Part shown: positions 10,795-60,542 of the stretch, in pieces | Position numbering within the stretch: the first letter of the stretch is position 1 | How the letters are laid out: each line of letters starts with the position of its first letter | DNA from: Alloascoidea hylecoeti | Lineage: Eukaryota | Assembly: GCA_001600815.1 (NCBI GenBank) | Contig: BCKZ01000006.1 | Coordinates: 372,001 to 436,000, forward strand | Length of the DNA: 64,000 nt | Reading direction: 5' to 3' | Translations under genes and position numbers: made by a program | The notes under the pieces: model-generated | The model's input: the letters and a program-made list of their open reading frames with translations, nothing else | Told to the model about the DNA's origin: nothing | Database searches by the model: none

Positions 10795-11437
10795 TTTTAA
10801 TATAATTTTAGTGATTCCAATAATTGTTGTGGCTTGAAATGATTTTAATGAATGAAGAAGCTTTGTAATTTCGATGAGGTAAAGAATAATTAGAATTTAT
10901 CATGGAAGTTTTACATAACAACAATAAAACAAAACAAAAAAATAACGTTTGTTATTAATTATAAGTTATACCGGTATATTTAAAATTTTAAGTGTGGAAA
11001 ACTCTCAAGTAGAGTTTATGGCAACAGCAAATAAACTTAGACACGAATTAGTATCATATAGCTATATTAATGAAGTATACATTTTTTGGGGTTGGAATAA
11101 CTATAGTATAAAGATTATAAGCCTATAAAATAGGGAGTTGACCTTTTAAGATAAGAATGGTTAATTGCAACAAGGAAGCTAAAAAAAAGAAACGATTCAA
11201 CTTTATCGGTATTATGGAGATAGTACAGAAAGGAATATAATTGAAATTCAATTTAAAAGCTTGATCTTTCTAATAATATTCTTTGGGTCTAATATGAATT
11301 GACGCAATGAAAAATAAATTAAATCAAGTTCAGTTTTATATGATATGATCTCACCCATATCTCCACAAAATTTACTATTCCATACTTAGAAGGATATTTA
11401 GGATTGACAACATTGTAATGAACAAGCTAGATTATTT

Positions 11438-19162: not shown

Positions 19163-22100
19163 ATTTAATTTTAGAGAGAATAGCAAAGTCCTAGATGTAG
19201 GCAGAATTTGATATATATAACATATTTAGAGGTGTATGATACATAAATTTCTAACTTACTTTGCTTGCGTCGCTGAGACTCTAAAAGGTAATAAGAAAGG
19301 AAATAAAACTCAAAGAAAAATAATTGGAATTAAATTTAATTAAAATGTATTAAAATGCGATAAATTAAAAGTAGATTTCTGTGGGCACACTAACATAACA
19401 TATCGAGAAACCACACTGCATCACGTCTAGCAACTAAAGAACCAAATTCTAAACCTAATCTTTACTTTCTTCCTCCTCTACTGCATATGCACGGTTGCAG
19501 ACCCCGGCCTTTATTTGTCCACTCCTTGCATGCTTTCCGCCTCTGCTACTTCTACATGTACACTAGCCATGCTTTCTCGAGTGGTCGAGTAGTCACAAAG
19601 CGCCACCCGGCAGTTTTAAACTCTTGAATTTTGTTTCTGATTTATTTGCAAAACCGAAAAATACAGAGTTTATACCTGGAATGATGTGCCAACCATATAG
19701 AGCTAGTTATAACTACTTTTTGATTAATTTTAAGCTTATAAATCATGGAAAATTCCAAATTAATAATATTGTTCCTGCTCCGCGATCATGAGGATGCCCC
19801 ATATCGGTCCTGCTCTTAATTCTTAATCCTAATAAATTAGCATTTTTACTATATATTATTAATTAAGACTGATTGATTATGACAATGGGAATTTCAAACC
19901 TCAAAATATAATTATAATTACGTGTCGCAGCGCTAACTAGCCAAATTGCTGTAAGATAAACGGCCGTTTGCAATCTACTCCGAATGGATCATGAGGCATG
20001 GTTCTTGCACATTAAAAACTATATGTGAAATTAACCCCTTTATGCATATCTGTTTAAATTTATTGCTTCTGACTTCCTTTGGATAGAATCATAAAGAAAT
20101 CAAAAAATAATAGTTCACACAAAACCTGCATAATGCTAAGATGTCTCTTCCCTAGATTTTCACGTGCACATATATATCCACATATATAAAAAAAAATTAG
20201 ATTCAAGACTTAATTTTAAAAATATCGAATAGTTTCTCATTCTGAATATTGCCTTAAGCTTGTCTTTCATGTTAACGTTAGCCGAAGATACCAGCACCAC
20301 ATGTTGCACACTCTTGCACAAGATCAACAAGCTTTGATATTTATAATGTTTCAACCACTGAATAATTTTCTACCATAATTCTCATGTAAGTGTAGCTTCA
20401 GATCATCAAAACCAGCTAATATGCATTATTTAGCTATATATATCACATTAATTATATATTACTTGTGGAAAGCAATCCGATTTCATTCATTCATTCGGTG
20501 CATATTCTCATTTTTTGCTTATTCTTGAAATTGAACCTGGCGTTAGGATATATGGAAGAAAATTCAGAAATTTTAAAATCAACATTGCAACTAAGAATAT
20601 TCAAGAGAAATTTAAAACCTAATTATATGAAGCCCAATTGCCATTTTCATTTCTTCAATTGATATTCCATGCTATATCACGATAATGGCTTATCGAAGTA
20701 ATAATATGTTTAGAATAATTATAATAATAATTACATAAACATCTAATTTCGATTCTATCTAGGCCTATATAGTATTAAAATTTGTTTCGATCAATATCGT
20801 ATAAACTTTTACATATGTAAAAATCATACAAATGATATAATCAATATAATGTAAATTTAAAGATTATGTATAATAGATTTACATAAGCCTATATAGTCTA
20901 TAACTATAGCTTTCTAATATTAGTTACCCTTTTTTTTCCTTGGTTGGTGCTTGTTATTATATTTTCTTTATAAAAGTTTCTATTAAAGCCTGCAGCTGGG
21001 TATGGGCATTGGACTTCTAGAGGCTTCTCCAAATGTAGGCAACACAATTTACATCTAAAAATTTATAAACAAAAAATAAAAGCATACCAGGGTTATCAAG
21101 TAATTATTGAAAATTTGAAATTAAAAATGCCATAACCAGACTCGTGACCCTACTCTTAAACTAGCAAGTTAATTATAAGGTTCTTTGATAAGAACTCAAA
21201 AGGTGAGAATTCCACCTGTATGTGTGTGTAATTGCCTAGGAGGGCGGAAATCTGGAACTGTGTCGGGTTTATTTGTTAACGTTAAGGAGGTACAATGATG
21301 CCCCATAGACAGCCTAGACAGCTACGTATATCAATATTATATTATAGCTAGCCTATGGCCCTGAATGTAGTAGGTAGCAGGTACGTAGAGGGAAACAGAT
21401 TAATGAATCGATTAATTCAGCTTTACAATTTAGATTATTTTATTTCACTTTAAATTTGGTTTTCCCTAATTATCATACACTCTTATTTATTTATTTTTCA
21501 TTTCTATCATATCATTCTTTCAGTCAGTTATGTGTTTACAATTGGAATATTTGACTCCAATTCAAAGTTATTGCAATTGTGTACCATACACACAGTCACT
21601 GCATAATTAAATAGGTGTTTCAGTGACATTAAGTTGTATCTATAAGCTTAAGGTAAGATATATATTATAGCTATGGTAATTTAAATTTAAAAATTATTAT
21701 ATAGTTGGAAACTTTTCAGCTATCGCAATTTCACACAAATGGTTTAATCTGAAAATGAGAATCATATAGTAAATTAATTGAAAGTTGATCTTTTTTGATA
21801 TTTTAATATGCATATCAAAACTGCACTTTTAAACTTTTACTTTTAACACCATTAACACCCAAAATGAGTAATATATGTTTCTTTACAAAAAGGCCCAGGT
21901 CTAGCTAGGCAATGCTATTCCCTCGCGGGCTAGCATCTGCGCATTTTAACATTTTTATAGCTAAATTCGTAGTTCCATTTCTCCCTACATTGGGTAAAAA
22001 AGATTGATAAACATTAAGTGAAATTTGAAAGATTCGCAATTATAGTTTTGCCATATTAGATACATCTATGACATAAATATACCTATATAGCTATAGGATA

Positions 22101-23851
22101 GGCATTCAAATAATTCGTGTGTTCAAATCTAAAATTCTAGGCGTATATTCATATAATTAGACAAATTATAAGTATCAAATCGATTGCAATATTGGGAAAT
22201 AAAGATTATTATACAACTTAGCACATATATAATTATTGCGATCATTATTTTGCTACTGATTGATTGTGTAAATTTGTAATTGTGTGAGACTGTGAGTCTA
22301 AATTTTTTTAAGCTAATTATAACTTAATTACCATTCTTCAAATCGATTATTATTATAATTATAGGCTAGGAGTTACATACATAGTTAAGCCGAGTCATGA
22401 TTTATAATATTTATTATATAACCCGCAATTAATGTTGTAATCAAGTAATATTAGTATATACGACGTGTTTTTCTTCATATTCTTTGTTTCTTCTTCTTAA
22501 TTTTCCTTGACTCACATAAACTTTCTTTTACCTTGCAATTTATGAAAACCTTGCTGCAAAATTTATACCATCTGGGAACGGAACTACGTAGCTGCTGAAC
22601 CAGTAATATAGGATCTGTAATAAAATTAAATCCAAAGCTTAAGAACCAAATATTAATTAAATGATCAGGTTTAGATGACTAGTAGCATATATACTACCGA
22701 AACCCAGCAGATCCTAATGCGATTCATTTTTAATCTGGCAGTTTTCTATTTATTATAGCCAATATTAGCCATACTATGATATATATACATGGATATATTG
22801 CAATTGTAGTTCGGTGTGTTGTATATAGCAAAAGATGTGGTGGCAGCTAATGTTAAAAGAGTGCACGTGTGGAGATCATATTATACAACAATATCAACCA
22901 ACACAAGGCATGGAATGGTTATTGATCAGTCAATAATAAATAGATATCAAAACTTTTCCACCTAGGCCTATATTTGATATGGATAGCTTAGGATCTTTAG
23001 AGGTCAAGAGTTTACTATAAAATTTCATTCTGAATGGGATCTGTCTCCATGAAAATGAATACGAACTTTATGATTGAGTTGGCGAATAAATGAGACTAGT
23101 GTAAAAATAAATTATCGATTGTTGTTTCAATTTAGACATGTAGTTAATTTTACTAAAGCTTAAGTTCTTGCTATTGGACATCACGAATTGTACCAAAAGA
23201 AACTAGCTTCGACACAACGTTAACTAGTACTCTTGTAGTTGATCTAAGATCTTCAAAGAATGGGAAAGTTACAATATCTAATTACATACATGTATGTCTT
23301 TATTTTAAGACAATAATCACTTGAAAATTATTAAAAAATATGTCACATTTCAGGCCCATTGGTCAATCAATTGCAATATATAATATACAGGTCGATCGAT
23401 ATTTCCAGATCCTTCTTTTATAAAGAATAGATGGTTTACAATTGAGTATGATTTATCGCATACAACCCACCTAACCGAGTTGCGGTTGCAGAATTTGTGC
23501 ATTATAATTGCAGCTGTACCTTTAAAATCTTTTCTAAATACTGGAGCCTAGCAACGAAACACAATTACAATAAAGCTAATAAAGTACCCAAACTGCCTTC
23601 CTGTTCCACTTTAGTGCTTCCAATTTGACTGCTTCGCCCACCACCTAAATGGATAGATATGTAATTATGCCGATCAGGCTATCATTATCTAAGGGGAGTT
23701 TGTTATAAAACATAAACCTATATATTAATTAAGTTAAGGATGAACGAAGCATATAATCAATAAATATGGAACATCCGGATCCGCATTATCGTCTAGGCTT
23801 AACCAGCAATATATGGTATATAATGGATCTAGAAGAAATCAATAATATCTA

Positions 23852-24107
23852 CAGACCCCCTCCACTTTGTCAAGGGACCCTGCTAATTCATGCGCTAGCG
23901 TTTGGCCATTCTTTTGGATACTTATTAGACTATATACACCAGATATTCGGCTAACTTAAAACGCGGCCAGGAGAAATGGTAAGTAACTGTTATAAATTTT
24001 GGTGAATATCTAGTCATTATATAGATATAGGTAATATTGTTATGTCAAATAAATCGCCGAATTACGTAATCCAAAATGGCAGGGTCTCTTGACAAAGTGG
24101 AGGTCCG
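23852..24107. mobile_element. MITE family B, about 256 bp, about 33-bp TIR, TA-flanked (Tc1/mariner-type non-autonomous element)
   Basis: Left TA|CAGACCCCCTCCACTTTGTCAAGGGACCCTGC; right GCAGGGTCTCTTGACAAAGTGGAGGTCCG|TA; no coding capacity inside. Confidence 0.75.
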
Positions 24108-27100
24108 TAGATAAACTCATATATAATTATATACATTCTCCGTATCCCCCCGATCTAATCCTTATAATTATGTTATTTCAGCAATTAATTGCAAGAACAA
24201 ACACAAAATATTCTCTTTAATTTTCGATCTACCAAAGTAGAAGGCAATCAACTTAATAATTAATTAGGTTAACGTTATACCGGTATATAAGTTATAACTA
24301 ATGTTTATAGCTGTACAGTATACATATATATACATAGCCACAGTTGTTTGATATCTTCCATCCAACTTTTTCCAACTTTCATTCCTTCACGATTGGGAGG
24401 GTGACATCGATTCTTGTGGCACTCGGTGAAGAGTTCGGACCTTAATTATGGAACCTAATTTAAGACGAGCAGGCTCCTGTGGGCATACACTATTACCAGC
24501 TATCCACTCTCACCAAGCTGAAACCCTGTTTCATTACAATTGTGAATAAACTCTAGTTGCTAATGATTTTTGTCCATTAAGGCACCCACTGCCACCCAGT
24601 GGGTTTTATCATCTCTCCGGGTCCTCCTCCTTAAGCTTGTTACTGCCGAGGAAACAATACACTTCCAATCCCTTATATTTTTTCCTGAGAAACCATGCAA
24701 TTAACCCTCACATAACCACCAGTAAAGCCGTTCTTGGTTGGTTTCTTGATGGTGGTGTTCATCCTCCTCTAAATTCCTTCGGTCTACCAACTAATCGATA
24801 TCGCCCACTCCCATGAAGTTGCCCAGTAGTTACTAGTTAGCCGATTCTTTTCTCCGTTGGTCAATTAAAGGCGGGGGCGCTTATTTAGCTGCTGATCTTG
24901 ATTGTCCACCATTGATATTGGAGAGTTGAACTAATCCGGCATTCCTTGTAATAAGTCTGATCGATCATCGATGTAATCGGCTCATAGAAAGACGATTTTT
25001 TCATTGTTGTTATCTATCAGTATATACATGGCTGCATTATGCATTGAGCGGGTTAATTTGGGCCACGTGAAGAACCTCATCATTTTATACATTATTAAAT
25101 AATGTAAGTAAATGAATTATAAATATGCGGAATTAATACCCAACTGAAATATATTTGCTCTTAGAAAGAGTGAAGTCCCAGTTCACCCTTAAAAGGATGA
25201 TTTTTGTACTTCAGCGCGACGACAGGTTGGACCCTTTAAATTTTTTAAAATTTTTCTCTGTAATATTCTGGGACAATATTGAATTTTTCGTACAATATTA
25301 CAATATTGGTTACGATCACGATAAAAGTTTATGATATGTACTTCATATAATTATAATTTATAAATACCACTGAATCATCTAATAAATATATTAAAATTAG
25401 AATTTTTAACCGAAAAGTCAAAATTTTTTAATTATGAATGCCAAAATATTCAAGTTGCATAGCTAGCTGCACTGTTTCTTTCTGATCATGACCCCTTTTT
25501 GTTTGCTTTCTTTTTTAGGACAAAACATATAAATTTTCATGTATGTGAGAATCTAAGTAAGGGTAACACCTCAAATATGAAATTAGATTATGTAAGAGTA
25601 TACAATAATTTATGTAATATGAGAGCCACTAATCGAGATTTTGTTATCGATTAATTAGAAACATTAATATTAATATTCATTTCTTAATGATATACAATGA
25701 ACAGAAAATTTAGAAACTAAATTAGTTATATCACAGATCGACAAGAATTTGGTTGTAATTAATTAAAACAAAAAAGTGTCAACGATCGATCAGTCAACCA
25801 TGTGTAGGATGTCAAAAAAATCTTAAGCGGTTAATATTTAGGGCATAAATTTACTATAGTTATACAACCAGTGAGAGAAATTTAAAAATTTAAGTCCGAG
25901 TTCATATATGCTTGGAAGTACTATACGTACTACATGTAGCTATTTTATTTCTTTCTTGATCGTTAAAATTGTGGATAGGTTTCCAAATAAAATCTATATC
26001 ATGCTGATCATCATCAACTATATATGAATATATACGTGTATGGTCACTATGGTGCCTATATTGAAATGAGAATCATGATCAAGATCATTATAGCTAGCCT
26101 ATATATCTATATCAGTCCTAGCTTGAATTGCGATTTCTTTTTGTATCATGATGATGTATGCATATATGTGCTCGTAAGTTATGAGTCGTAACTTTAATAT
26201 TTTAATTATAATAAGTGTTACACGAACAATTAATAGTAACAAATATTTGGATAAAAAGGTGATTAGTAAGCACATACTTAGTATCTAACTAGCAATTATA
26301 AGGTCCTTTCAGGTGCCGTAAATCAAATCGAATTAATGCGGATTCTTGGTCATAAGCTAATTAAGGCTTTTTAGTAATTCTAAACCTCGGCTATATCCTT
26401 GCGGCAGATGCCGAATATAGTAATGGAACTATGGAAGCAATACAAAGTAATTTCTGCTTCTTTTTGTAATCGGAAGCTTAATAAATTTATCATATTATGA
26501 TAAAAACGGATGTAAATATTGTGGTTCTACACATATGCATGTTTCCATAGCTTTTATAACTTATAGCTACTGTGGTGTTATACCCGCAACTATATACTGA
26601 CTTATTATGCATAATACTAGTGCCAAAACTAATTATAGAAGCATTATAGATGCAGATTCTACATTTAAATAGCTATATGGTGATCAAAAGAGAGCAGATA
26701 AATTTAAATAAATAACATCTTGCTTCTTACGGGCGCTAATCAACACACACCTCAAAGTGATGCTGACTAATACATACAGACAAAAAGATAGACTAAAAGA
26801 TATAAAGATGACGAGGGTGCTAACCATAATTCATATAGGGCATAAACCTGTGGTTTATTCGGTTGTCTGTATTAATCCCAATTTGGGTGTGATATCGATA
26901 TTGCAATTAATATTGTGCATTAATTTGGAAAACTGGGTTTACCATCAAAAACTATCCAACATTATTAATTTAATAATGATTCAGTGACTTGGACATACAC
27001 AGTTACACACGTATAGCTAATTTAGCTAAAGGTATCAATTTAATTTAGTTATATCTACTCAAATATAGTTGAATGATATATTAATTAATATATAATTAAC

Positions 27101-28414
27101 AGTCCTGCGCATGATGTATAGTTCGATCGCGACTCATGGCATGTTATTACTTATTAGTTAAAGTTTTATGCAATTATAATAACTATCCTAATTATCATGA
27201 ATATTTAGTGAAGCAGGCTATGGGCTATATTGTAATTTCTAAATATGTAATATCATCAATTTGTAATCACAGTTGGATAATATAAGCCTATAACTAAATT
27301 AAAATTAGTATACATTTAAACATACATAGTATCTATATACAGACAATTGCAATTACAAGGGCATTTTGTCCTTCATTTGGAATCTATACCTACAGTGGCT
27401 GTGATTAAAATAAAAGTAGGATATGAAGACCTTAATGTATTTGTGCTATACCCATAATCGAAATTAACGCTTAATGTAACTAAGAAATATTGTATCAATA
27501 CAAGAAACACTACAACATCATTCACGTTGTACCAATATAATATATGTAATACTATGTATGAGTGCATTGATAGCTTAAGATGTATACCATATGCATTCAT
27601 ATAACTTTATAAACTCAAATAGGGCGGATAACAAGTGTCAATTATATGCTAGAGGCTTCAAACGGCAACATAAGCACCTACATACATAGCTTTATTCACC
27701 ATAGGCGCATTAGTGCATAATAATACATGGTCTCTTTTATAATGAGAAGAGAAAAGTAAAAAACTGTTCAAAAGTCAAATTACCCGAATGTTCAAACTTC
27801 AAACGCACTATTATATTAATACATCATCAACTTTAATGGCTAGTACTAGTCGAAATACCCAGTTAGATATTCTATCTACTTAAACGGCGATCCATTAATT
27901 CAACACATTGACATTGCGTCAGATATGAGGCCTTACGGTTGGGTCCCACATTATTGAACAGATATTATTAAATGTGGTGTTATGTTTGCGGTGGTTTACC
28001 ACAATTCCAGGCTTCATTTTTACTAGTTTTTGTAGTACTGCGGCCGGTATAGAGAACTAAATAAATGTATGAAGAAAGCAAATGAATGTAAATTATGAGT
28101 TCTAACTGCACTATTAGGTATGTGGTATGTACGATTTTTTCAAACAAAAATAATTTGCGTAGCTCTAAAATATTAGAATATGTCAATGAATTAAAAACAA
28201 AATAAACAAAAGAAAAGAAGCGAACCAGAACCGGAAGAAAAAAGAAACAATAAACGAGAAACGTATTAGACAATGAAAAAAACAAAGAAACAACCAATAT
28301 TGGAAAAAAGGAATTGTAAAAGGACCAGATACAAATAATAAGAAATAGTAACAAAAAAAAAAGCTTTAAATTTATAAATAATAATAAATATGTGAATGGA
28401 TAATACTTTCATGA

Positions 28415-31400
28415 TCATCTTCTTGAATTAATATTCTGAATGCTATTCTCAATAGTCATCTCTTGGATTGGTAGTCTAGTTTTCAATCTTCTTGAATTAA
28501 TATCATCATTATTCCTAGAATAAGCATGTCTCGTATTTATAGTTGGTGAATGCAATCTTGTTGGTGTTGTACCCAAGCCAGTTCTCATGTTTAAACTACA
28601 TTTCCCGGGTATCATTGAAATAATATTTTCTTTACCAGTATTTCTGTCAGTTATAAGGGTGCTAGGTTGATTAATAGTTTTCTTTTTTGGAGTTGGATTT
28701 GGTGCTGTTTGTGTAAACGGTTTTAATGGTCTCGAGGTCAAGCCTTTAAAATTTATTGAAACCCTTCTTCTTGGTCGTAATGAAGATGGTATTTGTAAGT
28801 GTGATTCTAGTCCATATGATTTATGAATACGTTTTTTAGAACTTGATTTTGGTTTAATTAATTTTGTCGCTTTGATTGGTGTTGTAAGATTACCTATAGT
28901 TCGTAAATGAGTTATTGAATCATTTGATTTAACCTTTGTTGTTGATGATTCTTCGGGTATTGTTTGCCATTCCGAGTCATCATCAGTATCACTTCCATTT
29001 AGAATGATATTTTTATTATATTTTACTGGTGTATTAGTCGTTTGATCAATGCTTTCCATTTGGTTTGTAACCCTTTTAGTCAATATGGAAGGTTTAAATG
29101 CTTCAGAGTTAAGCCTTTGTGGGATAGAAGGTTGTTCATTATCATCTTTATTGTCACCTAAATATGTATCAACAGATGTATCGGATGGTGTATCTGATAG
29201 TGTATCTGAATTTATAGATCCTACTAGAGAAAACAACTCAGCACCAGATAAATTTTGTGTAGAGATAGGCAAAGAATAATAATCATAGTTATTAGACGAA
29301 AGCGGAAATGATATGGGCGACGGTATAACAGAAAAAGTCAATTTCAACGAAGATTCAAGTCCCCGATTTAATTCATCCATTAAAGATTTTAATATGAATG
29401 AAACTTCATTATTATTTTCATCATTATTTTTATACAAATTTTCATTTGTTAATTTGGATTTAAATTCAATAATCGATTCAATTGTTTTAATAAATAAATA
29501 TCCCATAAATTGAGTGAAATTATCATTTTCTTCATTTTTTAAAATATACTCCATGATTATTTCTTTTAGCTTAAACTTTAAATTTTCCTTACTTATATTA
29601 AGAAAATTTATATAAAAACTATAGTTTCCATTATTTTCAATATCATTTAATTCCTTAATATTTTTTACTGTTTGAATTTCCAAAAAATCTAATGATTTAT
29701 TAAATTCAACTAATTTTGAATCAATTAATGATTTAATTTTAGATATATCACTTTTTAAACCTAGAATGAATTTATTACATTTATTAGTAAATTCAGAAAT
29801 TTTAAAGGATATGATTTTTTCCAAATTAATTGTTAAAGTTTCTGATGATGATGAGTTGAAAACTTTTTCAAATGATTCTAACCATTGTTGTAATTCAGTT
29901 TCTTGATTTATTTTTGATTTATATGAAATGATTAATTTACTAATTTCAATCGATTTTTCAGATGTTTTAGAATTGAAATTATAATCATTAAATTTTTCAT
30001 TCATTTCATTAATTGAATTGTTAATTAAATTTTGAATTTTTAATAATTTTGAATTTTGATCTTTAACTGTTAAATTAATAATTTTTTTTTCTCTCAGTTT
30101 TAATTCTTGTATTTCTTGTTTTTGTTCACTAATCATTTTTAAATATGATGTAACATGTCTATCTAAATTTGTTGAATTTCTTATTACTTTCGTTTTGATT
30201 TCTTTTGCTCTATTTGCATACTTCAAAGTATTTAATGTCTCATCATAATGATGTGACGAAGGAGAAACACAAACAATCATAACAGTTTTACAATTTCCAC
30301 CTAGAGAGAACTTTAATAATCTTGTTAATTTTGAATCTCTAAATGGTACATGATTTCTTCTTCTTGGATCACATAGAGCATTTATACAGTTACCAAGCGC
30401 TAATAAAGATTTATTAATGTTAGCACCTTCATTTAATCTTACCCCTCGGTTCTGAGTTGCAGAAGCTCTTTCAGAACCAGCCAAATCTATAATTGATAGG
30501 GTTGAGAATAAATGTTCTTCAGAAATATCAACAGTTTTATCTTTAATTGTTAGATTTATTTGTAGAACCGCATGAGATCTTGAAGAAGTTGCATTTGCAG
30601 CTGTCGACGATACAGTTCGATTTAGATTTCCTTGAATTATCATATCCATAACTTGTTTAACATTAACTGGTCTATGACTTGTTAGATTTGATATTGTGAT
30701 TCTTCTTTCATCTTCTCTAATTTGTAAGGAATTTATACCAGAATTTGTAGAATTTGAGGTAGGATTTAATAAATCTTTAATTGTTTCGTTATAAACCTCT
30801 AAATAACTTAAACTTAAGTCAATTTTTTTAGTATCTTCTAGTTGATCTATTCTCTTAAATAGTTCTTGCATTGTCAATGGTATAATTCCAGGTGCTGCAT
30901 TTGTACCAGTGATTGTGTGAGTTTTACCACATCCGGTTGCACCATAGGCAAATACAGTTGCATTATAACCATCTAAAATCACATCGATCAAAGGTTTTGT
31001 TGTTTTATTAAAAACGTCTCGTTGCGAAGCATCCTGATCAAATAATCTATCGAATATAAACCTGTGCTCTTTTATCCTCACATTATTATTCGCAACAGGT
31101 GCATTTGTGGGAGACGAAGGAAATAAATTTTGAAAAGTTGAATAAGGATTCGTTTCGGGAGGATCAAATATTAGCATTTGATCATCAACTGCATTTATGA
31201 TCTTTCGAAGACCGTGGGGAGAATATTTAGTAAACCCGCTATTCGTAGCCGAATTAGAATCTACGTATACGGGATTTGGAGGTTGAGAATTGCCGGATAA
31301 TGAATTCTCTCCAAGAAAAACAGGGTCATTTTTTGATACAGCAAGATGAGATGTTTCTTTACTTGTGAAAGGCCTGACTCTAACTATTGAAAAAAAAATG

Positions 31401-31482
31401 CCAATTAGAACAATATGTCATAGCCCAATGTATACATAAGTGGCATACCTGCTACTGTTATGGAGGACTGTTGGGAATGCAT
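28415..31482 (-). CDS. KIP3: Kinesin-8 motor Kip3, 2 exons, 1000 aa
   Basis: Exon 1 31482-31449 (MHSQQSSITVA), a 65-nt intron GTATGC...TTCTAAT...TAG (31448-31384), then exon 2 VRVRPFT. P-loop GATGCGKT, SSRSH, DLAGSERA and HVPFRDSKLTRLLKFSLGGNCKT. Confidence 0.93.
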
Positions 31483-32138
31483 TCTTTCTCCTGGTGCGAA
31501 AAAAAAGAGGTTGAAATTGTGTTCTGAAACGTTCTAATTAATTTTTATACGTATGCCTTGTTGACTTTTGCCCCGAAACGGAATGTCCTCTGTATGCAGT
31601 TGACACGGCAACGTACATTATATGCCTACTCTTTTTTCATCTTCACCATATTTATATATTCACTGTGTATATAATCAATAGATGATAATATATAAATTTA
31701 ATGTTTAGTTGGTATTATTAAATGATAATTATATTTGTCTGCAACTGGCAGCTAACGGTAACCGTTAGGCGGAAACGTGTACAATATTATGCTCCTGTAG
31801 CGATACATATCATACATGTAGTTAATTAAAGCCAGCAACAGCAGATATATAAATAACAGGCTAGGGAGGTTGCAATTATACCTATACTATATATTGTAAT
31901 GATCATGGCATTTCCAGGCATAAGAGTTTTTTATGTTACGAAGATTTCCTCAAGTGTTATAAACTGGCACAAAAATTCTAGATTTCTGATCTAAAATAAT
32001 AGATCATCGGTAACGCCTATATTATATGCATTCCTCGTGTTCAAGTTCAGTTGCAAGCTAGAGGCTTACTCGAATTTCTGGTTTCTTATAATTACAAATA
32101 AACCCTACGTAACAACGTATAAGCCAATAACCTCTATA

Positions 32139-33212
32139 ATGCTAGGAATGGATGTGCCAACAACTCTCGGTTCAAATCAAAATATTGGCCCTCTTATTGA
32201 GAAAATAGATAAAGTTCAAGGCTCTCTAGATCTTATCATCAATAGTCTTGGACTTCAGAATAATCTTAACATCGAGAAAAAGACAAATGTTAATCGTGAT
32301 TCGAAATGTATTGATAAGTTAAAAGTAATAATCGATGATTTGGAACAAAAAATAAATCAACTTGGCCACAAAATAGATCATAATACAAACTTGATTAATT
32401 CTCGATTTGAGCAGCAAGAAGAAACACAAAGTTTGAACTTACAATTGCATAGTGATAATGATTCTAATTCATCTTTGATATTCGTTCCATCTCATACTTC
32501 AGATCCATGGTCTGATTCTGAAGTGGAAGAATTAGAAGAAAATGAGTTTGTGAATATTTCAACTCAGAACCAATCGCCTTCACCTACAACTACCACAATA
32601 GTCACTGTAGCCGATATTGCTTGTGTTCAAGAAATCATGCCATTACCTAAACTTCACGACTGTTGGAGTTTCTTTAAGTGGAAATCGAATGTCGATCTTC
32701 TAATTAATACTCTTCAAATCGATAATTTAAAAGATATACCGCTTAAAAATCTTTCAAATGCAATGGATAGAATAAAATTGACTTCATTAATCAACATGAT
32801 AGTTAACTCTATCCATCATAACAATGGTCGTTTTCAACAATTTTTTATACCTAATATTTTAAACACTACCATAAATAATCTTCTTAAAACAATAGAGAAC
32901 ATGTATTCTCCAACAATTATTAATATTAATAGTGAATTAACGAGGCTTAAGCATACATTCTATATAAATTCAGAGCAGTTTGAGAGAAAAAGTATATGGG
33001 CCAATAATCTTTTTAATATAGCTGAAGAATCAAATATAAATATTACAAATTTTGAAAAATTAGGTATATTGAATATTTGGATTAAAAAAAGAAGTGATTT
33101 GATTGATATTTTCAATAAAGAAATAGGTCATAAAGATTATGATGAAATTGTTCTTTTAATGATAAAAGAGATACGAATTAGTGAAGATAGGCGAAAGAAT
33201 GATCAACAGTGA
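32139..33212 (+). CDS. Orphan 357-aa protein: N-terminal coiled coil, acidic linker and C-terminal Ty1/copia Gag capsid-like region (candidate domesticated gag)
   Basis: Intact 1074-nt ORF in very AT-rich DNA. [22 protein letters not shown] and [35 protein letters not shown]...[14 protein letters not shown] follow the copia CA-NTD/CTD (UBN2-like) pattern. No LTR, PBS or pol nearby. Confidence 0.6.
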   Translation: [357 protein letters not shown]

Positions 33213-33458
33213 TTTTTCCTTTTTATTCTATTCTTCTTTTAATTAATCAGATATATAAAATTAACATTAAAATATAAGAGAAATATTTAAACATTAATTA
33301 ATATTGGATTTTAAAAGTTTAATGCTTAATAACAATGTGTTGGATCAAGAAAAGTATGCAAATCCATGAAAAGAAACAATAATAGCAATTATGAATAATT
33401 ATAACAATAATACGTGACAAAATATTTTTCTTCAAATTTTTAGTTTGCCATTGCGTTT

Positions 33459-34658
33459 TCATTTATTGATTGTTTTATCAGCTTCATGATAAACTAAATA
33501 ATTTGGTAAACCAAAAACATCATATCCCAATCGTTTAGCCACTTTTCCGAATCCTTCACTTTCAATTAAATGATAAAATGGAAATGTTGGAAACATGGCA
33601 CCATCTCTATGAACATCAGCGTTAACTAATATACAATTTCTTCCAACACTATCTAATTGCATTTCAACATTGATATCACCATCCTTATCATAATAAAATA
33701 CCATTAGGGCACGATATGTTGCTAAATCGTCTTGTCCGGTTGTTGACTCTTCAGTTAGTATATCTTCATCATCTAAGAGTGCTGCTATTTTTAAACCTTG
33801 TGAACTTTCAACCCAATTCATCATATCATAAGGTGATATATCCATTTTACCTTGATCATTTATTATTCTTTGATAAGTATTTGGACTAATAACAGATTTA
33901 TTGTGCATTGCTAAATCTTGAATTAGTGTTGGTGGTGTTTCGATTATTCCACCATCAAGCCATAAAATCCAAGAAATGTCGGGGGCTATTGTAGATAATA
34001 ATAGATTATTCTTTTTTAATGCCATTTCACTTAATTTTGATTTCAATGCTAATTTTGGATCAACATTTTTTAGTTTGTTTAATTGTCTTGGAGTTATATC
34101 TTCATTTTCTAATCTTATAATCGAAATATGTCGAAATTTTTTATTCTCATTTGTTGCCTTTTTTTCATATGTACGAATTGCCGTTTCTAGCTGTTTCAAT
34201 ATTTTATCTCCTTTTCTAGATCTTGGGACAACAATACCTAAATCAATTAGATTTTTGGGAAATTGTAAAGCTAACAAATTCTCCCAATATTTAGGATTAA
34301 AATTTTCCATATCTGTTAGGATTAGAATATGTTCTTCGTTGAAGAGTGGGTTTGGAGTATGAGTAAGAGCATTTAAATCATAATGAACAATATGATCACC
34401 TTGTAGTGCTAGTGGTCTCACTGTCTCTCCACGAGACCACCAATGGGATAGATCTCGTTCATATTTGAGAGCATTCTGTTTAATTCTCGCATCTGAGTTA
34501 AGATTTGGATTCGCTGCAGTTGAAGAACTGACATTTGAAGAATACAAGACTCGTGAGAATATTGGACCATCGCCTAAGATTAGGTATAATAGGAGCCCAA
34601 AAATAACTAGTGGAGCTATAAGAGTCACACGGCGCTGTGTCTTCCAAGAAATGTGCAT
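33459..34658 (-). CDS. Mnn9-like GT62 (Anp1 family) Golgi mannan polymerase subunit with degenerate DxD, 399 aa
   Basis: Type II membrane anchor; HIVHYDLN, YWENLLALQFPKNLIDLG, IETPPTLIQDL, VHRDGAMFPTFPFYHLIE and GLPNYLVYH motifs, closest to Mnn9. ATG 34658 is preferred over 34796. Confidence 0.88.
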   Translation of the reverse strand: MHISWKTQRRVTLIAPLVIFGLLLYLILGDGPIFSRVLYSSNVSSSTAANPNLNSDARIKQNALKYERDLSHWWSRGETVRPLALQGDHIVHYDLNALTHTPNPLFNEEHILILTDMENFNPKYWENLLALQFPKNLIDLGIVVPRSRKGDKILKQLETAIRTYEKKATNENKKFRHISIIRLENEDITPRQLNKLKNVDPKLALKSKLSEMALKKNNLLLSTIAPDISWILWLDGGIIETPPTLIQDLAMHNKSVISPNTYQRIINDQGKMDISPYDMMNWVESSQGLKIAALLDDEDILTEESTTGQDDLATYRALMVFYYDKDGDINVEMQLDSVGRNCILVNADVHRDGAMFPTFPFYHLIESEGFGKVAKRLGYDVFGLPNYLVYHEADKTINK

Positions 34659-35432
34659 TTGATAAATATTTGTATGGTAGTAAAAAAAAGTGGTGACAGA
34701 AAAATGGAAGTAAAACGACACGTCAAATTTCAACGCAATGCCAATTTCAAAGACAACGGAAAACAACAGGGATGAAAAGAAACGATGTTTAACCATTATT
34801 TATAACTCACCATCATATAAATAATATCGGTGAATTTGGGGTTTGCGTTGATCGGCAGAGTTTTTTTGCATCAATTTTAATTTGTTAGGCTATTTGTGAT
34901 GAAATCTCCTTCACCACTAAAATTCTGCTATTTGGAGGTTTAAACCACTACGTTAAGAAGGATGGTGGTTATGTTCATTGTTAGATAAATAAAACATTGT
35001 AGGCTTTTACTTATAGTTTACAACTAGTGCTACTACTTGTTTAAGTTTGATATCTTGTTTGAGTTTAGTTATAATTGTACAGCACCGATTATCGCCGAAA
35101 CAATTATCAGTATGATTAGTTGTTGTCAGGATCAAATAGAAAAATCAAATATACAAGGGTGGTGAAACCGACAAGAAAAGGCCCTTCATTTAAACTTCAT
35201 GATCATGATATCGGAGGAACTTACACCCATTCGTTCGACTTCCTACACAGTAAGATTTTGAAAGTGCATGTGAACAAGTTGAATACATAAATTTATTATG
35301 ATAGGTACTTAATATTTTTTCTTTATTTAATCATATAACAAGTCAGTATTTATAGTTGATAACTTTTAATGTATAATAGTTGTATATTGTATATATCGTT
35401 TTGAGATTCGTTTGATCCCAGTTTCCAAATAG

Positions 35433-35618
35433 AAATTGCTTTACTTAATTTCGGCCATCCCATAACTAATCTTCAGCCGGGGTTGGTACCCGAAGTTGTT
35501 CCATAGTATCCATAGTCCTGCGTATTAACGGGTCATACCGGTATCAACGCGGTCGAAAATAGTTGTGAGGTGACCGATAACCAGTAGTTAGCATGGCCTA
35601 AATTAAGAGAAATAGCTT
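35433..35618 (+). mobile_element. MITE family A, copy 2
   Basis: TIR ACTTAATTTCGGCCA ... TGGCCTAAATTAAGAGAAATAGCT; internal CCCGAAGTTG and TATTAACGGGTCATACCGGTA shared with the other copies. Confidence 0.75.
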
Positions 35619-36237
35619 TATAAGTTCAATTTAAAAATCTGTAGGTTGCAATTTTGAGATTGAAGAGACTTCAACCGCTGCGCACATATAAGTTTTTTAT
35701 ACCTTTTCGTTTTATTATATAGTATACCAAATGTTATTAATCCATAAGAAGAAAAATGTAATTGGAGAGAAGATTTAGAGGATTATATTTTTCAAATCTT
35801 ATCCGGTTATGATCTAGCACGTGTGCACGTAGATCCTGAGACTTTAAGCCATACGTATTCCCCTCTAAAACCACCCTTTGCGCTGTCAAGTTAAGCTGAC
35901 ACTACATGGAAACTGAAGAAAATATCATCCACAGACAAGAATCAAACCTGCATTGTGTGTTAAATACAAATCATTGACTCACGGAAAGGTGAACTGTCCT
36001 CGACAAAGCCCTTTTAATCGGTCTATTGATTACTTGCTTCAGGATTTCGCTCTCGTTAAGTTGAAACTGCCACCGTTGCGATCTCCGGGTACCCACCATC
36101 TGTGATGAGAAAGAATGCGAATAGCGACGATGCGTTTAACGTCCGACAGAAAACAGCACTTTTTTTTTCAGATGGTCATTAGCTAAGTGGCATGGTCTAC
36201 TCAAAGCCGTCGCCATTTGCAGCTGAAGCAAAAATAA

Positions 36238-36322
36238 AGCCCTACGGGGGGCTCGAACCCCCAACCTTGTGATAACCATATAAAGTAAGAGTCACACGCT
36301 CTACCGATTGAGCTAGCAAGGC
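36238..36322 (-). tRNA. tRNA-Lys(CTT) with a 12-nt intron (36285-36274)
   Basis: GCCTTGCTAGCTCAATCGGTAGAGCGTGTGACTCTTA-[CTTTATATGGTT]-ATCACAAGGTTGGGGGTTCGAGCCCCCCGTAGGGCT; 73 nt after splicing at the canonical 37/38 site. Confidence 0.95.
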
Positions 36323-37849
36323 CTGTTTTTTCTCTACCGTAAATGGGATCTAAACTAGAGGATGATGTTCTATTATAGTACTCAGGGAAGAAAGAAGAGT
36401 GTCAAGAATACACAAAAATAAGAAGCATAGAAAAAGAGGTTTTTATTTCACTATATATAGTATATATTTCCTCAGAATTTACATAGTTTCTAGTTATATA
36501 ATTTAATTGGAAAATATATGAAAAGTTAAAAAATGACATAGTAGAAGAAAATATATATGCAGATCAATATACGTTACATTCTTTTCCCAATAGTTCGTTA
36601 ATTTAGTAATAACATACTTTCACTGTGCTGGTATTTTTGATAAATGATAAGGGGTTTCTCATTAAGTCTGGTTTGTTCGTTTCTAGTTATAATATTATTT
36701 GGAAATCTAAGAAAGGTTTTCTTCTTCTATATCTGCAAACAACGACGTTTGAGTAAGAGAAATATATGAAGGTTCTTCTAGAACCAGGTTTAAAAGGGAT
36801 TAAAAATGTAACGATTTTACACCGAATAGCATTGTAAAAGTAAATCTAATTTTGAATTAAAGTTTTGTGAATAGAATCGGGAAGTAAATGTTAAAGGACT
36901 CTCTAATCTAAAGTAGCAAGAACTTGAGGAATTTATATGATGCAATGATATCGCTAAAAGCAATAATATGGACATGCATATGCATAAGAATCATTTACGA
37001 CGGATATAGTACATCGATATATATCCTTAATCATTATTATTTTAGAATGAAGTTGGGGCTTGAAAATGGAATTAAGCATCTCTCTTGTGGTTGCAATTAG
37101 ACAGACGATTTAGTTATAAAAAGTTGATCATGATTTTAAATCCTACGAACTCATTAATTATAAGACCACCATTCTTTGAATATCTGACAATAGTTAATTA
37201 TAACACATAACGGTGCTTTTATAACTAATTCAATTAAATTTTAATGATATGCACAGAGCGCTTTAGTGAGACAATTGGAGTTTTGAAAATTTAAAGAAAA
37301 GCTATTAATTTCAATATAGATTAAACATAAAATTCAATTTGTTATAACTGAAATATCGAATAACCTTCAAAATAACTTACATTTTAAGTCTAGCCTTTTG
37401 GAACAATAATATATAATACCCCATCTTTATATAATATATAGCCAGTTCATCGTTTAAATAGGTTTCTCTCTTTAAATTGGTTTCTCTCTTATCATTAAGT
37501 TTCAATAAAGTTCATAAGTATTAATTGAAAATTTAAGAATTTGAATGATTAAAATTGCAATATTATTTGTGATCATGGAAATCTAGTTGGCAATATATTA
37601 ATTCATTTGTCGTGATATCTTATCTATCTATATATTCTCTTTTCTCTCGATCCTTTATTTCATTTCAAATATTCCATAGAATGACTTCTAGAATACTCTT
37701 AGGCGAGATTTCAAGTAATTGCAGTCTTAAAAAGCAATTGCAATCAACTAGCTAGGGTTACTGAAATATGTAATCTAAGTGAACATGCCTTCCCAATTTC
37801 AAAAATAAACAAGGGATTTAATATTAACTGTCCTAAAGTAGATAAAAGA

Positions 37850-38518: not shown

Positions 38519-40047
38519 TTATTTGAAAACTTTACCATCAGCAACTTCTCTAGATTCACCATTAATGATTAAAGGTTTATCCCAAGCCCATAAATCATTG
38601 ATCAATTCTTTACTTTCTGGTTTAGTAGCATCTAATTTAGTGAAATCGTAAGATTCCCAATCTGGTGCAACATCAAAAGCAGGTTTGAAATCTTGTCCTC
38701 TAACCAAGAAAGCACCAGTAATACCATTATTATTATTTTCACCATAAACAACCATACAACCAAATAAATATTTTGTTGAAGCAGATAATCTATTGAAAAA
38801 ACCACCAACTAAATTATTTGACATAAAAGTTAAAGTTAATTCATCATTATATTTATAATCGACTTTCCATAATGACCATTCAGCTGGGTCATAATTTTCC
38901 CAAAACCATGGTAAAGCGGTTGGACGTGTATCTTCATTTGAATAAACACGTTTCCATTCATCTAATGGGATTTTTGATTTACCTAATAATTCCAAAGGAT
39001 GTTTTGGTTTTTTTTCTTCAGCAGCCGGAGCCGGAGCAGCATCACTAGCAGGGGCGGCTTCAACTTTCTTAGCTTTTGGTTTCTCTTGTTGTGGTTGTTT
39101 TGCTTTCTTCTCCTTCTTTGGTGGAGTATATTTAATCATCTCTTCAGCAAATTCAAAATCTTTAAACGATGGACTTAAAATTGGATGAGCAATTAAAGTT
39201 TTAAACCATCTAACTATATTGACATGATTTGATCTCCATTCTTTTGATAAAATTAATTTAAAAGACAAAGAAATAAGAGTAGCAGCAAATAAATCAGCTA
39301 AAGTGACTCTTTCAGAAACAAGATAAGTATAATTTGAAAGACGAGTTTCAGCAACTGATAAAAACTTTTCTAATTTCTCTAAACTTGTATCAATACCTTT
39401 TTTATTATACTGCGTATAACCAAGAATTGGAGCAATGACACCAAAACTTGCACTGAAAATATCAGAATTGGTGAATGACAACCATTTTAAGATTTCAGCA
39501 TTTTCTTCCTCAGTTTTACCAAGGAACTTGTGTTCTCCAACAAATTTAAGGACTGGAAATATAAATGAATAATAGTTAGTAATTTATAGTTATATGCAAG
39601 TTTTTTTTTTTTTTTTTTAATAAAATAACTTTAAAATATGAACATGTTTTTTTTTTTCAGATCTACATTCTCAACACGGAGGATTAAGACAGGGATAACT
39701 GTATAGAATAAAAATGTCTCATCATTTAAAAAACAATCATGATATCATATTGATAAATAAAGAAGGAAAAGAAAAAAGAAAACATACGGTAAGTGTTAAT
39801 GGCAATACACTCAGTTAATTTGAAACCCTTTTGACCTCTAAAAGCAGGACGTGATTTTAAAGGAAAGTCTTTTTCAAATTGATCATCAGAACCTTCTTGG
39901 ATGGTGATATCCAAGTCGTAGTATTTGACCAAATCCCTGGCGAGGATAGAACGAGGAGACTATTATATATTAGATGATGAAAACATCAATTAATACTGCA
40001 AAGAATAAACAACATACGGCGTTAACGTAGAGAGTTCCGAGAGACAT
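38519..40047 (-). CDS. TEF4: Translation elongation factor eEF1B-gamma (Tef4/Cam1), 3 exons
   Basis: Exons 40047-40018, 39959-39788 and 39552-38519. Introns 40017-39960 (GTATGT...TAG) and 39787-39553 (GTATGT...TACTAAC...CAG). GST-like N-domain and C-domain LDEWKRVYSNEDTR...APDWESY...DGKVFK. Confidence 0.95.
39655..39728 (-). ncRNA. snR38: Intronic box C/D snoRNA snR38 (guide for 25S rRNA Gm2815-equivalent)
   Basis: In TEF4 intron 2: C box ATGATGA (39725-39719), guide AGTTATCCCTGT complementary to LSU ACAGGGATAACT, D'-like CTTA, D box CTGA (39660-39657). S. cerevisiae snR38 is hosted in the TEF4 intron. Confidence 0.85.
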
Positions 40048-41934: not shown

Positions 41935-43497
41935 TTACTGATAAGGTGGTGGATTATCATCAAGATCACAATCATAATCATAAATATGATAATGATTTAG
42001 AAGATTGATATCAATATTACGAGATAATAAAAAACTCTGCTTTAAAATATCACTAAAATTAATACTAATTCCAAAATCATTTTTCAGAAATTTAGAAAAT
42101 GGTCGAGTCGTTTTACAAGTCGACTGTGATTGGGTATCATCCTTGAGGTTGTAATTGAATTGATTTGAACTTGAATTCAATTTAAGTGATGTAATATAAT
42201 CCTTATCATGATCTTTATTATAGTTATTTGTTCCCAATTTATGAATTAAAGGTGATTCTGACATTAAACGAGATAATATTGGAATTTCTAGAAATTTCCT
42301 ATGAGAATTATCCTCTTCATAATTATTAGTATTAGTTGTTGAACTATTAAAGGCCACATTTGACATAACATCATTAATATTTTTGACTTCTGAGGTTTCA
42401 GATTGATTGTTTTGACATGTATTATTATTATTATTTAATTGAAATTGTTCTAGATTAAGATGAATGACTCTTCTTTTTGGTTTTGAATTTTTTGAATGTC
42501 TTTTGTTATAAAGTTTAGTTTGATGATTTGCAATCTCTGAACAGTAATCACGGACATCATTTGATTCTTTAGCCATTTTTTCATCTATTAACGAAATATC
42601 TTTTGATGTTGTTAATGATTGTTCTTTTTTTAAAATTGCTTGATCAATTGGGTTGTCATTTTTATTATTTATAAGACACTTATTGGTACAATTGCAATCT
42701 TTCCAATTTCTATTCCAATTGCAATTGGGTGTCACTAGATGTGGCGAGACTGTTGAGAGAAAATATGGTGGTAATAACAATCCATTATTTCGCATCTGTA
42801 GTAGTTGTAAAGGAACATAATGACATGTTTTATTATCCCTATATTTAAACCCATTACCGGTGGTAGTATTATCAGGAGTTGTATATTCTTTGCATAAGTT
42901 CTGTATAACAATAGGAACTTGTGTTTTAATTATCACCCTAATATATCTTTCAATTTGTTCCTTTAAACCATCTATTAATTCAGGATAAGTATCATCTATA
43001 TTTGTAGAAATGATTATATTTTTTAAAGGATCATTTAAAAATTCTATTTGTGGACCGATTTTAGAATTAAAAGTTATAAAAAATTTTGACTTAATGGATA
43101 TCGATGAAAGTTTAATAAGTAGTGGAATTGAAAGACTTTTATCTGTTAATATAAATTGTGGTGAAACCTCTGTGAGACATGATTTATCTTTTTTTGATAA
43201 GATTGAAGAGAAAGGATTTGTTTCGATATTAGTTGATAAATAGATTTCTAAATCTCCATCTTGATAAATGAAACTTAAAGTTGCTTTAAATTCATCATTA
43301 TCATTAATTTCAAATTCCTCAACTTCGAATATTGGTTGTATTGTGCCTAACTTTAAATCATGTAAAAGTAATGGGGGCGATATTTTAGGAATATTATTGA
43401 GATGATCGGAAAGTTTGAGGACATCCTTCATAAGCTTCGTTATCCATTCTTGAAAAGAAATTTGGTCGATAGTCGACCAGTTGAAATAAAAAGACAT
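41935..43497 (-). CDS. MDM34: Mdm34, ERMES SMP-domain subunit (divergent), 520 aa
   Basis: N-terminal MSFYFNW, SMP-like LKLGTIQP...ETNPF...FLNDPLKNI.ISTN.D, basic KPKRRVI and C-terminal PY motif PPPYQ. Confidence 0.8.
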   Translation of the reverse strand: MSFYFNWSTIDQISFQEWITKLMKDVLKLSDHLNNIPKISPPLLLHDLKLGTIQPIFEVEEFEINDNDEFKATLSFIYQDGDLEIYLSTNIETNPFSSILSKKDKSCLTEVSPQFILTDKSLSIPLLIKLSSISIKSKFFITFNSKIGPQIEFLNDPLKNIIISTNIDDTYPELIDGLKEQIERYIRVIIKTQVPIVIQNLCKEYTTPDNTTTGNGFKYRDNKTCHYVPLQLLQMRNNGLLLPPYFLSTVSPHLVTPNCNWNRNWKDCNCTNKCLINNKNDNPIDQAILKKEQSLTTSKDISLIDEKMAKESNDVRDYCSEIANHQTKLYNKRHSKNSKPKRRVIHLNLEQFQLNNNNNTCQNNQSETSEVKNINDVMSNVAFNSSTTNTNNYEEDNSHRKFLEIPILSRLMSESPLIHKLGTNNYNKDHDKDYITSLKLNSSSNQFNYNLKDDTQSQSTCKTTRPFSKFLKNDFGISINFSDILKQSFLLSRNIDINLLNHYHIYDYDCDLDDNPPPYQ

Positions 43498-60300: not shown

Positions 60301-60542
60301 CCTCTGGAAATTCTTTCCATCCTAGCTTAGGAGTACCGATGCAATATAGTAATACTTCTGGATATGTTGTGCCGCAACCTTATTATTCTGGTTATACTTA
60401 TAATAATGTTGTACAACAGCAACAACAACAGCAACAACAGCAGCAACAACAACAGTATAATGCTCAATATCAGGCCCAATTACAACACGCACAACAAGCT
60501 CAACAAGCATATTACAACTATTATTATGGGAATAACAATTGA
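57372..60542 (+). CDS. Large low-complexity Ser/Pro/Arg-rich protein of unknown function (about 1040-1056 aa)
   Basis: 3.1-kb ORF with many S/T-P-x-R/K sites, a coiled coil near residues 700-790, an RS-rich tract and a C-terminal poly-Q. The true start may be ATG 57417. Confidence 0.8.
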   Translation: MYNNILNLKQYHPVVMKWLNRGRPDSASIGFSPTTTEDMLATFDPSKIPVSPKKSAAPCARLDRNSSPVRMSEILGRRRRESMPDPDGLPPNTPTSVHARNTSPLRNEVAADSDERGRGRPSMASNSTAASRYSYVPVTYNRDGSPQRADLPPNSVYYPAPIPTKLKLPPRLSSPERKKANYDNHFHISADELNQKRPPRRAHGKDFRMVPNDHVQQSSSRSPQRSPQRSPQRTSSPQRIRLPEKMGSPERIGSPQRLNSPIKEINNTIMAGHTSPRSEQTQSQSSSSTETTSSSVSYNNQLPQSSFTTPAGSPDRNRIMKQNDYNQKQDLSSQQISDEYRLSPSKHINSIISINSSNGSETNYDVILPIISDSRSDRFSTSPKRSIPNSFNNGNERENLGTSIEPISISDSESDASSYSFETIASEIQINRGVRRVSTAIRRGIDDDETSWVTESDSDEYLSSEENDNNKITKIVSISTDNDNDEEDSRYIRYETVTPTASGYNSPEHTISPTKHIHLGNDERTNVQHNHSTDITVGARNVSPSVVNINELHYGLAKLRLQEQHTKADSNLNSQSNTPQPSSISPQLNGKNNNKSNSSPLRSGIVTNDDNDSQDKLKYFKPESFTRNPMTNKPILPNNFKSRPLPNPRPTSSYTPSAPNYSNAKGHTHTRSEVVSSKQQHHHDYMDDICTNKVTPLLEKLNQRENDHKTEMQKLKERYSSVIQNKTTAEVQREKNSGNAKDLKELAKQRERERTIQIAKEFEKQKKRQQEMRIDKTKMEEARKAYIRRPPPADDYYDQFNKQERVSIRDRSQSRSRSNSGYRTSIKDDRSRSRSTGAGVNDRSQSRARPTTPKQTNISSSRRSKTPTSSNRLPNPEDARGPVHSGGYKPPKNFSPNTLVGMIDKQKNFQPDVDTGKKYLPTSKTYSSPESENIVNRVKSPASRRYNNNSPKSSVSPPRSRYRGSDNQSIFSSSTTTSGNSFHPSLGVPMQYSNTSGYVVPQPYYSGYTYNNVVQQQQQQQQQQQQQQYNAQYQAQLQHAQQAQQAYYNYYYGNNN

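Follow-up and report, generated by a model that had tools for sequence, protein, structure and literature searches.

The 64,000-nucleotide stretch of Alloascoidea hylecoeti analysed here (contig BCKZ01000006.1 of assembly GCA_001600815.1, positions 372,001 to 436,000; hereafter the window) contains, between a kinesin-8 gene and a mannosyltransferase gene, an open reading frame (ORF) of 357 amino acids (aa), for which the initial annotation had proposed a retrotransposon origin. Does this ORF, here called P0001, encode the capsid (CA) of a Ty1/copia-type Gag protein that was taken over by the host, or is it a gene of the yeast itself? The best reading of the data is that P0001 is a real, intact, single-copy and taxonomically restricted protein-coding gene. 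It is probably a host orphan gene of this AT-rich budding yeast, and its product a coiled-coil scaffold or adaptor. The gene is located as follows.

32139-33212, plus strand: candidate gene P0001, an intact ORF that runs from ATG to TGA and encodes 357 aa

The frame is longer than chance would produce and its coding statistics are those of host genes. Stop codons are frequent in this DNA because its G+C content is only 29-33% (33% for the window, 29% for the ORF), and the longest ATG-initiated ORF in each of 30 mononucleotide shuffles of the window was 82-150 aa long. With 357 aa, P0001 has more than twice the length of the longest shuffled ORF, and therefore something besides chance keeps the frame open. 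A codon log-odds score derived from ten genes of the window with Pfam support gave P0001 0.218 bits/codon in frame and -0.93 and -1.15 out of frame, and the ten training genes scored 0.19-0.41 bits/codon. For each of the three parts of the protein described below, the score was likewise positive in frame and strongly negative out of frame. The ATG has an A at position -3 and lies in a good start context. Since the ORF contains no CTG codon, its translation is unaffected by the yeast CUG reassignments. The intact 357-aa ORF between the KIP3 and MNN9-like genes was found exactly at the coordinates initially assigned to it, and the flanking genes were identified by Pfam and PDB matches.

The protein is recorded in NCBI and Logan, and its 90% cluster has one member. 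Among the matches listed (29 of 119 pieces), the contigs of a metagenome run (X1) span 31709-36000 and those of an isolate run (X2) span 31435-36000, with 0 differences; in both runs the listed contigs are continuous from the P0001 ORF into the unique MNN9-like gene. The two data sets may derive from the same strain. Because the contigs are unbroken, near-identical extra copies are unlikely, an argument that does not extend to diverged copies. Two other runs with small shares (X5 and X6) gave short pieces, some unlike the window and some identical to it, including two inside the P0001 ORF, and no diverged copy of the ORF was found among the matches listed for them. No paralogue was detected in the window either, where tblastn matched P0001 only to itself (next E-value 1.1).

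A non-functional or only recently opened ORF would account for the missing homologues in the protein libraries searched, for the lack of a listed RNA run and for the low-confidence structure predictions. However, it would leave unexplained a frame of more than twice the longest of 30 shuffles in DNA of 29-33% G+C, the host-like in-frame codon usage across all three protein parts, the good start context, and the identical sequence in two separate data sets, possibly of the same strain. This explanation was therefore regarded as improbable.

The product of the gene can be divided into three parts.

32280-32411, plus strand: heptad-repeat (coiled-coil) core, about aa 48-91, defined by heptad score inside a helical N-terminal region of about aa 16-103
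32454-32636, plus strand: acidic Ser/Thr-rich linker, aa 106-166, with 12 D+E, 0 K+R and an isoelectric point (pI) of 4.05
32637-33209, plus strand: C-terminal domain predicted to be all-alpha, aa 167-357, I/N/L/K-rich, pI 8.6; the region earlier read as CA-like

The heptad score of P0001 peaks at 0.775 at aa 48-75 and is still 0.76 up to aa 84, above the maximum of 0.739 reached in 200 shuffles, so that the coiled-coil N-terminus claimed in the initial annotation was retained. In the AlphaFold2 model of the whole protein, two long helices (aa 16-41 and 55-103) form the best-scored part, with a predicted local distance difference test (pLDDT) value of only 50-58. The linker has no secondary structure in this low-confidence model and contains one motif, EENEFVNI (F being residue 137), that resembles an Atg8-interacting motif/LC3-interacting region (AIM/LIR), as named from what we take to be the consensus. 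Nine helices were predicted in the likewise low-confidence model of aa 160-357. The residues I, N and L make up 36% of the protein. These AlphaFold2 models were obtained from the single sequence and have a mean pLDDT of 36.8 (whole protein) and 43.2 (aa 160-357); when PDB was searched with Foldseek, nothing was matched at E<=0.001. At such pLDDT values the models and fold searches speak neither for nor against a two-lobed capsid fold that could be superposed on Ty1 p18m, Ty3 CA or Arc. Without relatives there is no alignment, and hence no confident fold.

Such a product would be a soluble 357-aa protein in which a short coiled coil and an acidic, probably disordered linker precede a C-terminal domain of about 190 aa that is entirely helical. 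Its most likely role would be that of a scaffold or adaptor made of identical subunits: chains would associate through the coiled coil into dimers or higher oligomers, and the C-terminal helical domain, perhaps together with the AIM-like motif of the linker, would bind a partner. Fast-evolving yeast proteins of the spindle pole, the kinetochore, meiosis and autophagy (adaptors) show an architecture of this type. That P0001 oligomerises, acts as an adaptor or is expressed at a particular time is putative. Taxonomically restricted yeast genes for fast-evolving coiled-coil scaffolds are found among those for spindle-pole-body, kinetochore and meiotic proteins. P0001 resembles these genes in its intact host-like ORF, in the combination of coiled coil, disordered acidic linker and helical domain, and in having no detectable relatives outside a narrow lineage. 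It differs in not being assignable to any named protein of the class.

Relatives of P0001 were searched for at several levels. When the whole protein was compared with Pfam-A by hmmscan at E<=10, only sub-cutoff matches to ATG16 and DUF16 (E 2.2) were obtained, both in the coiled-coil region, and three C-terminal pieces (aa 160-357, 255-357 and 160-260) matched 0 families at the same threshold; the filters of HMMER may lose very weak matches. When 177,635 distinct PDB sequences were searched with phmmer, no capsid chain was matched at E<=10, and the sole match was the Dcp1 chain 2lyd_A. In a word-indexed search of 5.8 billion proteins, the query alone was recovered at E<=0.01 among 2348 candidates of near length, and an exhaustive phmmer search of 1.84 billion representatives recovered the query alone at E<=0.001. 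For aa 160-357, nothing was found at E<=10 among 421 candidates from proteins of 626-2000 aa, the size of Gag-Pol, and of 235 candidates in the near-length search none but the query itself reached E<=10. None of the 268 pattern matches in metagenome contigs was confirmed, nor any of the 6 in viral contigs; a synteny search of the metagenome contigs with the MNN9-like neighbour as bait yielded 73 matches with 0 confirmed. As judged by these comparisons of sequence, P0001 appears to have no detectable homologue outside a narrow lineage. Such a lack of relatives is also expected where a host gene evolves fast and its lineage has been sampled sparsely. The missing Pfam family is not unusual in this window, since four other large ORFs (531, 576, 1057 and 823 aa, stop-to-stop) are also without one at E<=0.001.

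Several points weigh against a host orphan scaffold. The adaptor mechanism is deduced from architecture alone, no RNA run is among the listed sequencing runs containing this stretch, and orthologues were not found in protein libraries, metagenome contigs or viral contigs. A domain of about 190 aa that is all-helical, with about nine helices in the low-confidence model, is also what a two-lobed capsid would be expected to show. Furthermore, the neighbours of the whole protein in language-model searches were mostly Gag-type clusters: Gag_spuma (foamy-virus Gag) at 0.86 and 0.85, an unnamed cluster at 0.85, Retrotrans_gag (74% of members) at 0.85, PNMA at 0.84, DUF7041 at 0.83 and a basidiomycete zf-CCHC cluster (33% of members) at 0.82. 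Among the neighbours of aa 160-357, this zf-CCHC cluster was found again at rank 18 (0.89), and a cluster of Ty1 TYA Gag proteins at rank 29 (0.87), together with 27 unnamed clusters out of 30 at 0.91-0.92 and an influenza NS1 cluster at 0.88.

Because Gag-type clusters recur among these neighbours, the proposal that P0001 is a domesticated Gag was kept as an unlikely alternative. According to it, aa 167-357 comprise the N-terminal and C-terminal domains (NTD and CTD) of a Ty1/copia-type capsid whose long terminal repeats (LTRs), protease and pol have been lost and to which an N-terminal coiled coil has been added. The protein might then poison resident copia particles by co-assembly, like p22/p18 and Drt2, or form particles of its own. 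Both language-model searches pointed to Gag-type clusters, with TYA for the C-terminal part, and the recognition score of 2670 exceeded the mark of 2300. The neighbours are the sole evidence leaning to Gag, and all of them lie under or near noise level. Scores below 0.9 are leads only, one third of shuffled proteins reaching a first match of at least 0.8, and every named cluster is below 0.9. The first match shares 116 of 256 features, whereas pairs of the same family usually share at least 170, and the agreement of only 2 out of 10 matches means, by the calibration of the language model, that the top family is probably wrong.

The predicted size of about 190 aa and the all-alpha class, with nine helices in a low-confidence model, would fit a two-lobed CA; the Ty1 capsid fragment p18m has been described as an all-alpha domain of five helices (PMC8458377). 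The length of P0001 is also near that of the 972-bp gag ORF of the copia element Tca2 of Candida albicans, which likewise ends in a stop codon (PMC7175516). At the level of sequence, the capsid proposal found no such agreement. The initial annotation had aligned residues of P0001 with Ty1 Gag by eye, using its own version of the Ty1 strings. Counted by hand, the ungapped identities are 5/27, 5/32 and 2/10, in total 12/69, which is not evidence for homology because 36% of P0001 consists of I, N and L; the alignment was thus not upheld. Formal searches of Pfam and the PDB sequences also gave no Gag or CA match, either for the whole protein or for its C-terminal pieces. No Gag-family profile, and no Pfam family other than the sub-cutoff ATG16 and DUF16, was matched by hmmscan against Pfam-A at E<=10, although the CA-CTD of Ty1 itself is recognised as UBN2/Retrotran_gag_2 (PMC8458377). 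No capsid chain was matched among the PDB sequences at E<=10; that Ty1 p18m is among these sequences rests on entry 7NLH being named in PMC8458377, not on a match. Among 1.84 billion representatives and among proteins of 626-2000 aa, no homologous Gag from an LTR element was found, the yeast's own elements not having been searched directly. The lack of a Gag or Gag-Pol match there argues against both a recent source element and conserved orthologues. A recent domestication would leave a protein resembling its source, and an old one would have recognisable orthologues; neither was seen. On present sequence comparisons, nothing significant appears to link P0001 to Gag.

The hallmarks of a retroelement were also looked for around and within the gene. 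No LTR-like direct repeats of at least 25 nt were found in 27-38 kb of the window. P0001 contains three Cys residues, 0 zinc knuckles of the form CX2CX4HX4C and 0 D[ST]G motifs. No RVT, rve, RVP or gag family of Pfam was found in 40 stop-to-stop frames of at least 70 aa, chosen from the 98 in the window by omitting those nested in or opposite genes already scanned, or in 87 frames of 36-69 aa from 19.2-28.4 kb, which gave only three chance-level Pfam matches (E 0.0025-0.0033). The repeat, motif and Pfam frame scans therefore agree with the initial description of the locus as being without LTRs, zinc knuckle, protease and pol. A gene that stands alone in this way, continuous with unique flanks, is compatible with a co-opted gag, for which loss of LTRs, protease and pol and a single copy at a fixed locus are characteristic; any ordinary host gene has these properties too. 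On the other hand, no retroelement remnant was seen in any tested frame of the window.

P0001 can also be compared with known Gag-derived genes. The capsid-CTD restriction factors Ty1 p22/p18 and DRT2 of Saccharomyces cerevisiae share with P0001 a Gag-like size, an all-helical structure (predicted for P0001) and the lack of protease and pol, and DRT2 is also a stand-alone locus. However, p22/p18 and Drt2 are either identical to Ty1/Ty1' GAG or its clear homologues (PMC8458377; PMC10951436), whereas P0001 has no significant similarity to Gag. Drt2, the one known case in yeast, is still plainly a Ty1' GAG and its gene lies among solo LTRs and tRNA genes (PMC10951436); P0001 has no LTR relic, and the nearest tRNA gene is 3 kb away. 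The N-terminal coiled coil of P0001 is without counterpart in p22/p18 or Drt2. In the case of Tca2, where the comparison is one of length and description, a gag ORF of 972 bp, against 1074 bp for P0001, is likewise stop-terminated, but it is followed by a pol of 4728 bp and the element is flanked by LTRs of 280 bp (PMC7175516); nothing alike is present at P0001. The literature searched mentions no stand-alone gene derived from Gag in a budding yeast other than DRT2.

P0001 resembles the co-opted gag genes of other hosts in the concept of a capsid domain kept as a single-copy host gene, and PNMA and Retrotrans_gag clusters are among its language-model neighbours. The Lentitheciaceae/Lindgomycetaceae and Pleosporales/Mytilinidiales lineages, from which fungal cases come, are not budding yeasts. 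It has been reported that co-option of gag above the family level is rare, with 14 events in more than 740 eukaryote families and three in fungi, all three in these lineages, and the word 'Saccharomycotina' occurs 0 times in that report (PMC8321522). This rarity counts in favour of an orphan gene. Moreover, sequence profiles recognise such co-opted genes, whose orthologues occur in several families, and P0001 shows neither property. In its full form, the capsid proposal would derive the 190 aa of aa 167-357 from the capsid of a Ty1/copia-type element that is extinct or has diverged very far. This domain would have joined a new coiled coil that mediates dimerisation, and the host would have retained the product, evolving fast, to restrict retrotransposons or to form particles; this specific version is, if anything, slightly more doubtful than the general one.

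The only PDB match raised another possibility, namely that P0001 is a diverged Dcp1-like EVH1 protein (decapping activator). The chain 2lyd_A ('Decapping protein 1') was matched with E 0.04 by the whole protein and E 0.016 by aa 160-357, aa 225-292 of P0001 being aligned to chain residues 62-131. These E-values are above 0.01 in an N/I-rich sequence, and no Pfam family other than the sub-cutoff ATG16 and DUF16, hence no Dcp1 model, was found at E<=10, so that a match to an EVH1-wide profile is missing as well. The matched stretch is predicted to be helical in the low-confidence model, not beta, and judging from the alignment the sequence upstream of the match would be too short to accommodate the first half of EVH1. 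A Dcp1-like protein is accordingly very improbable. The Dcp1 identity was rejected as a sub-threshold match, as was the ATG16 identity, for which the Pfam match reached 15.2 bits against a cut-off of 33.7 (E 0.024) in the coiled-coil part only.

When all the explanations are placed in order, an orphan scaffold or adaptor comes first as the probable one, followed by a domesticated Gag, which is unlikely, a non-functional ORF, which is less likely again, and a Dcp1-like protein, which has hardly any probability; the rest belongs to origins that were not considered. As it stands, P0001 is one more orphan yeast gene, of a common kind and of modest interest. If the capsid proposal were true, it would be a second stand-alone Gag-derived gene of a budding yeast, so diverged that only structure could reveal it, and a capsid gene with an added coiled coil would be another, independent yeast system in which to study how capsids control retrotransposons. 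P0001 also illustrates a limit of sequence methods, in which the lack of relatives leads to the lack of an alignment and this to the lack of a fold.

The surroundings of P0001 consist of two host genes and the spacers between them.

28415-31177, minus strand: kinesin-8 (KIP3-like) gene; Pfam Kinesin 3.3e-111, PDB 7tqx_K 5.2e-168 and yeast Kip3 7rs5_K 4.9e-121
31178-32138, no strand: 961-bp intergenic region, head-to-head between P0001 and the KIP3-like gene, with TATA-like sites at 31846-31855 and a site resembling a middle-sporulation element (MSE) at 31966-31974
33213-33458, no strand: 246-bp AT-rich 3' spacer, tail-to-tail between P0001 and the MNN9-like gene
33459-34796, minus strand: Anp1-family (MNN9-like) mannosyltransferase gene; Pfam Anp1 2.4e-74, PDB Mnn9 3zf8_A 2.2e-95

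Since only 246 bp separate the stop codon of P0001 from the next gene, a protease or pol cannot fit between them. On the other side, P0001 and the KIP3-like gene are divergently oriented. The region they share contains, at 31966-31974 and 165 nt upstream of the ATG of P0001, one exact match to what we take to be the MSE consensus of Ndt80. The window contains 4 occurrences of the pattern, whereas 8.1 would be expected, and because it is not enriched the site is a weak hint only. The other genes of the window are ordinary yeast genes, including those for a cyclin, a BTB protein, EF1-gamma with the snoR38 small nucleolar RNA (snoRNA), AMPK beta, NAP and CNNM, and others.

The best PDB match of the KIP3-like protein belongs to entry 7tqx, presumably Candida albicans Kip3. 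In the alignment with the best kinesin-8 chain, residue 1 of the protein corresponds to residue 115, and upstream of it the frame stays open as far as 31417 but contains no ATG. Either the N-terminal extension is short or absent, or a first exon was missed; the sequences GTATGT and TACTAAC do not occur in 31178-32138.

Beyond the KIP3-like gene, about 9.2 kb (19163-28414) between it and a CLG1-like cyclin gene contain no ATG-initiated ORF of at least 80 aa and no Pfam family past the cut-off in 94 stop-to-stop frames (7 of at least 70 aa and 87 of 36-69 aa). This stretch also has no sizeable repeats (the largest are 30-32 nt), and its G+C content is that of the rest of the window. Within it lies a 30-nt inverted repeat (23859-23888 and 24074-24103), 90% complementary, with arms 185 nt apart. 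In a compact yeast genome, an ORF-free stretch of about 9.2 kb is of unusual length, and CLG1 and KIP3 are, as we assume, adjacent in S. cerevisiae. The stretch might represent a regional feature, for example of the centromere type.

Large ORFs without a Pfam family at E<=0.001 were noted at 41935-43497 (minus strand, 520 aa), 57372-60542 (plus strand, 1056 aa) and 61571-64000 (plus strand, more than 810 aa), the first of which likewise matched none of the PDB sequences at E<=0.01; proteins without a Pfam family are common in this organism. A further ORF without a Pfam family (52344-54050, minus strand, 568 aa) carries a tandem repeat at 52821-53742 with 3.7 copies of a 246-bp unit and 73% matches. 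The unit corresponds to protein repeats of 82 aa, as in yeast cell-wall proteins.

A cytochrome P450 gene (9236-10896, minus strand) is distributed over two adjacent, different frames, of which 9236-10153 covers profile positions 184-445 and 10162-10896 covers profile positions 6-165; the split may reflect a frameshift, a short intron or a pseudogene. The tRNA gene at 36237-36323 (minus strand, Rfam 54.1 bits) was read by ARAGORN with a four-base anticodon, which most likely reflects an intron. The EF1-gamma (TEF4-like) gene at 38522-39959 (minus strand) has two exons, one with GST_N (39729-39959) and the other with GST_C and EF1G (38522-39583). Between them, at 39650-39733, lies the C/D snoRNA snoR38 (62.3 bits), an arrangement in a host intron that is presumably the same as that of snR38 in TEF4 of S. 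cerevisiae.

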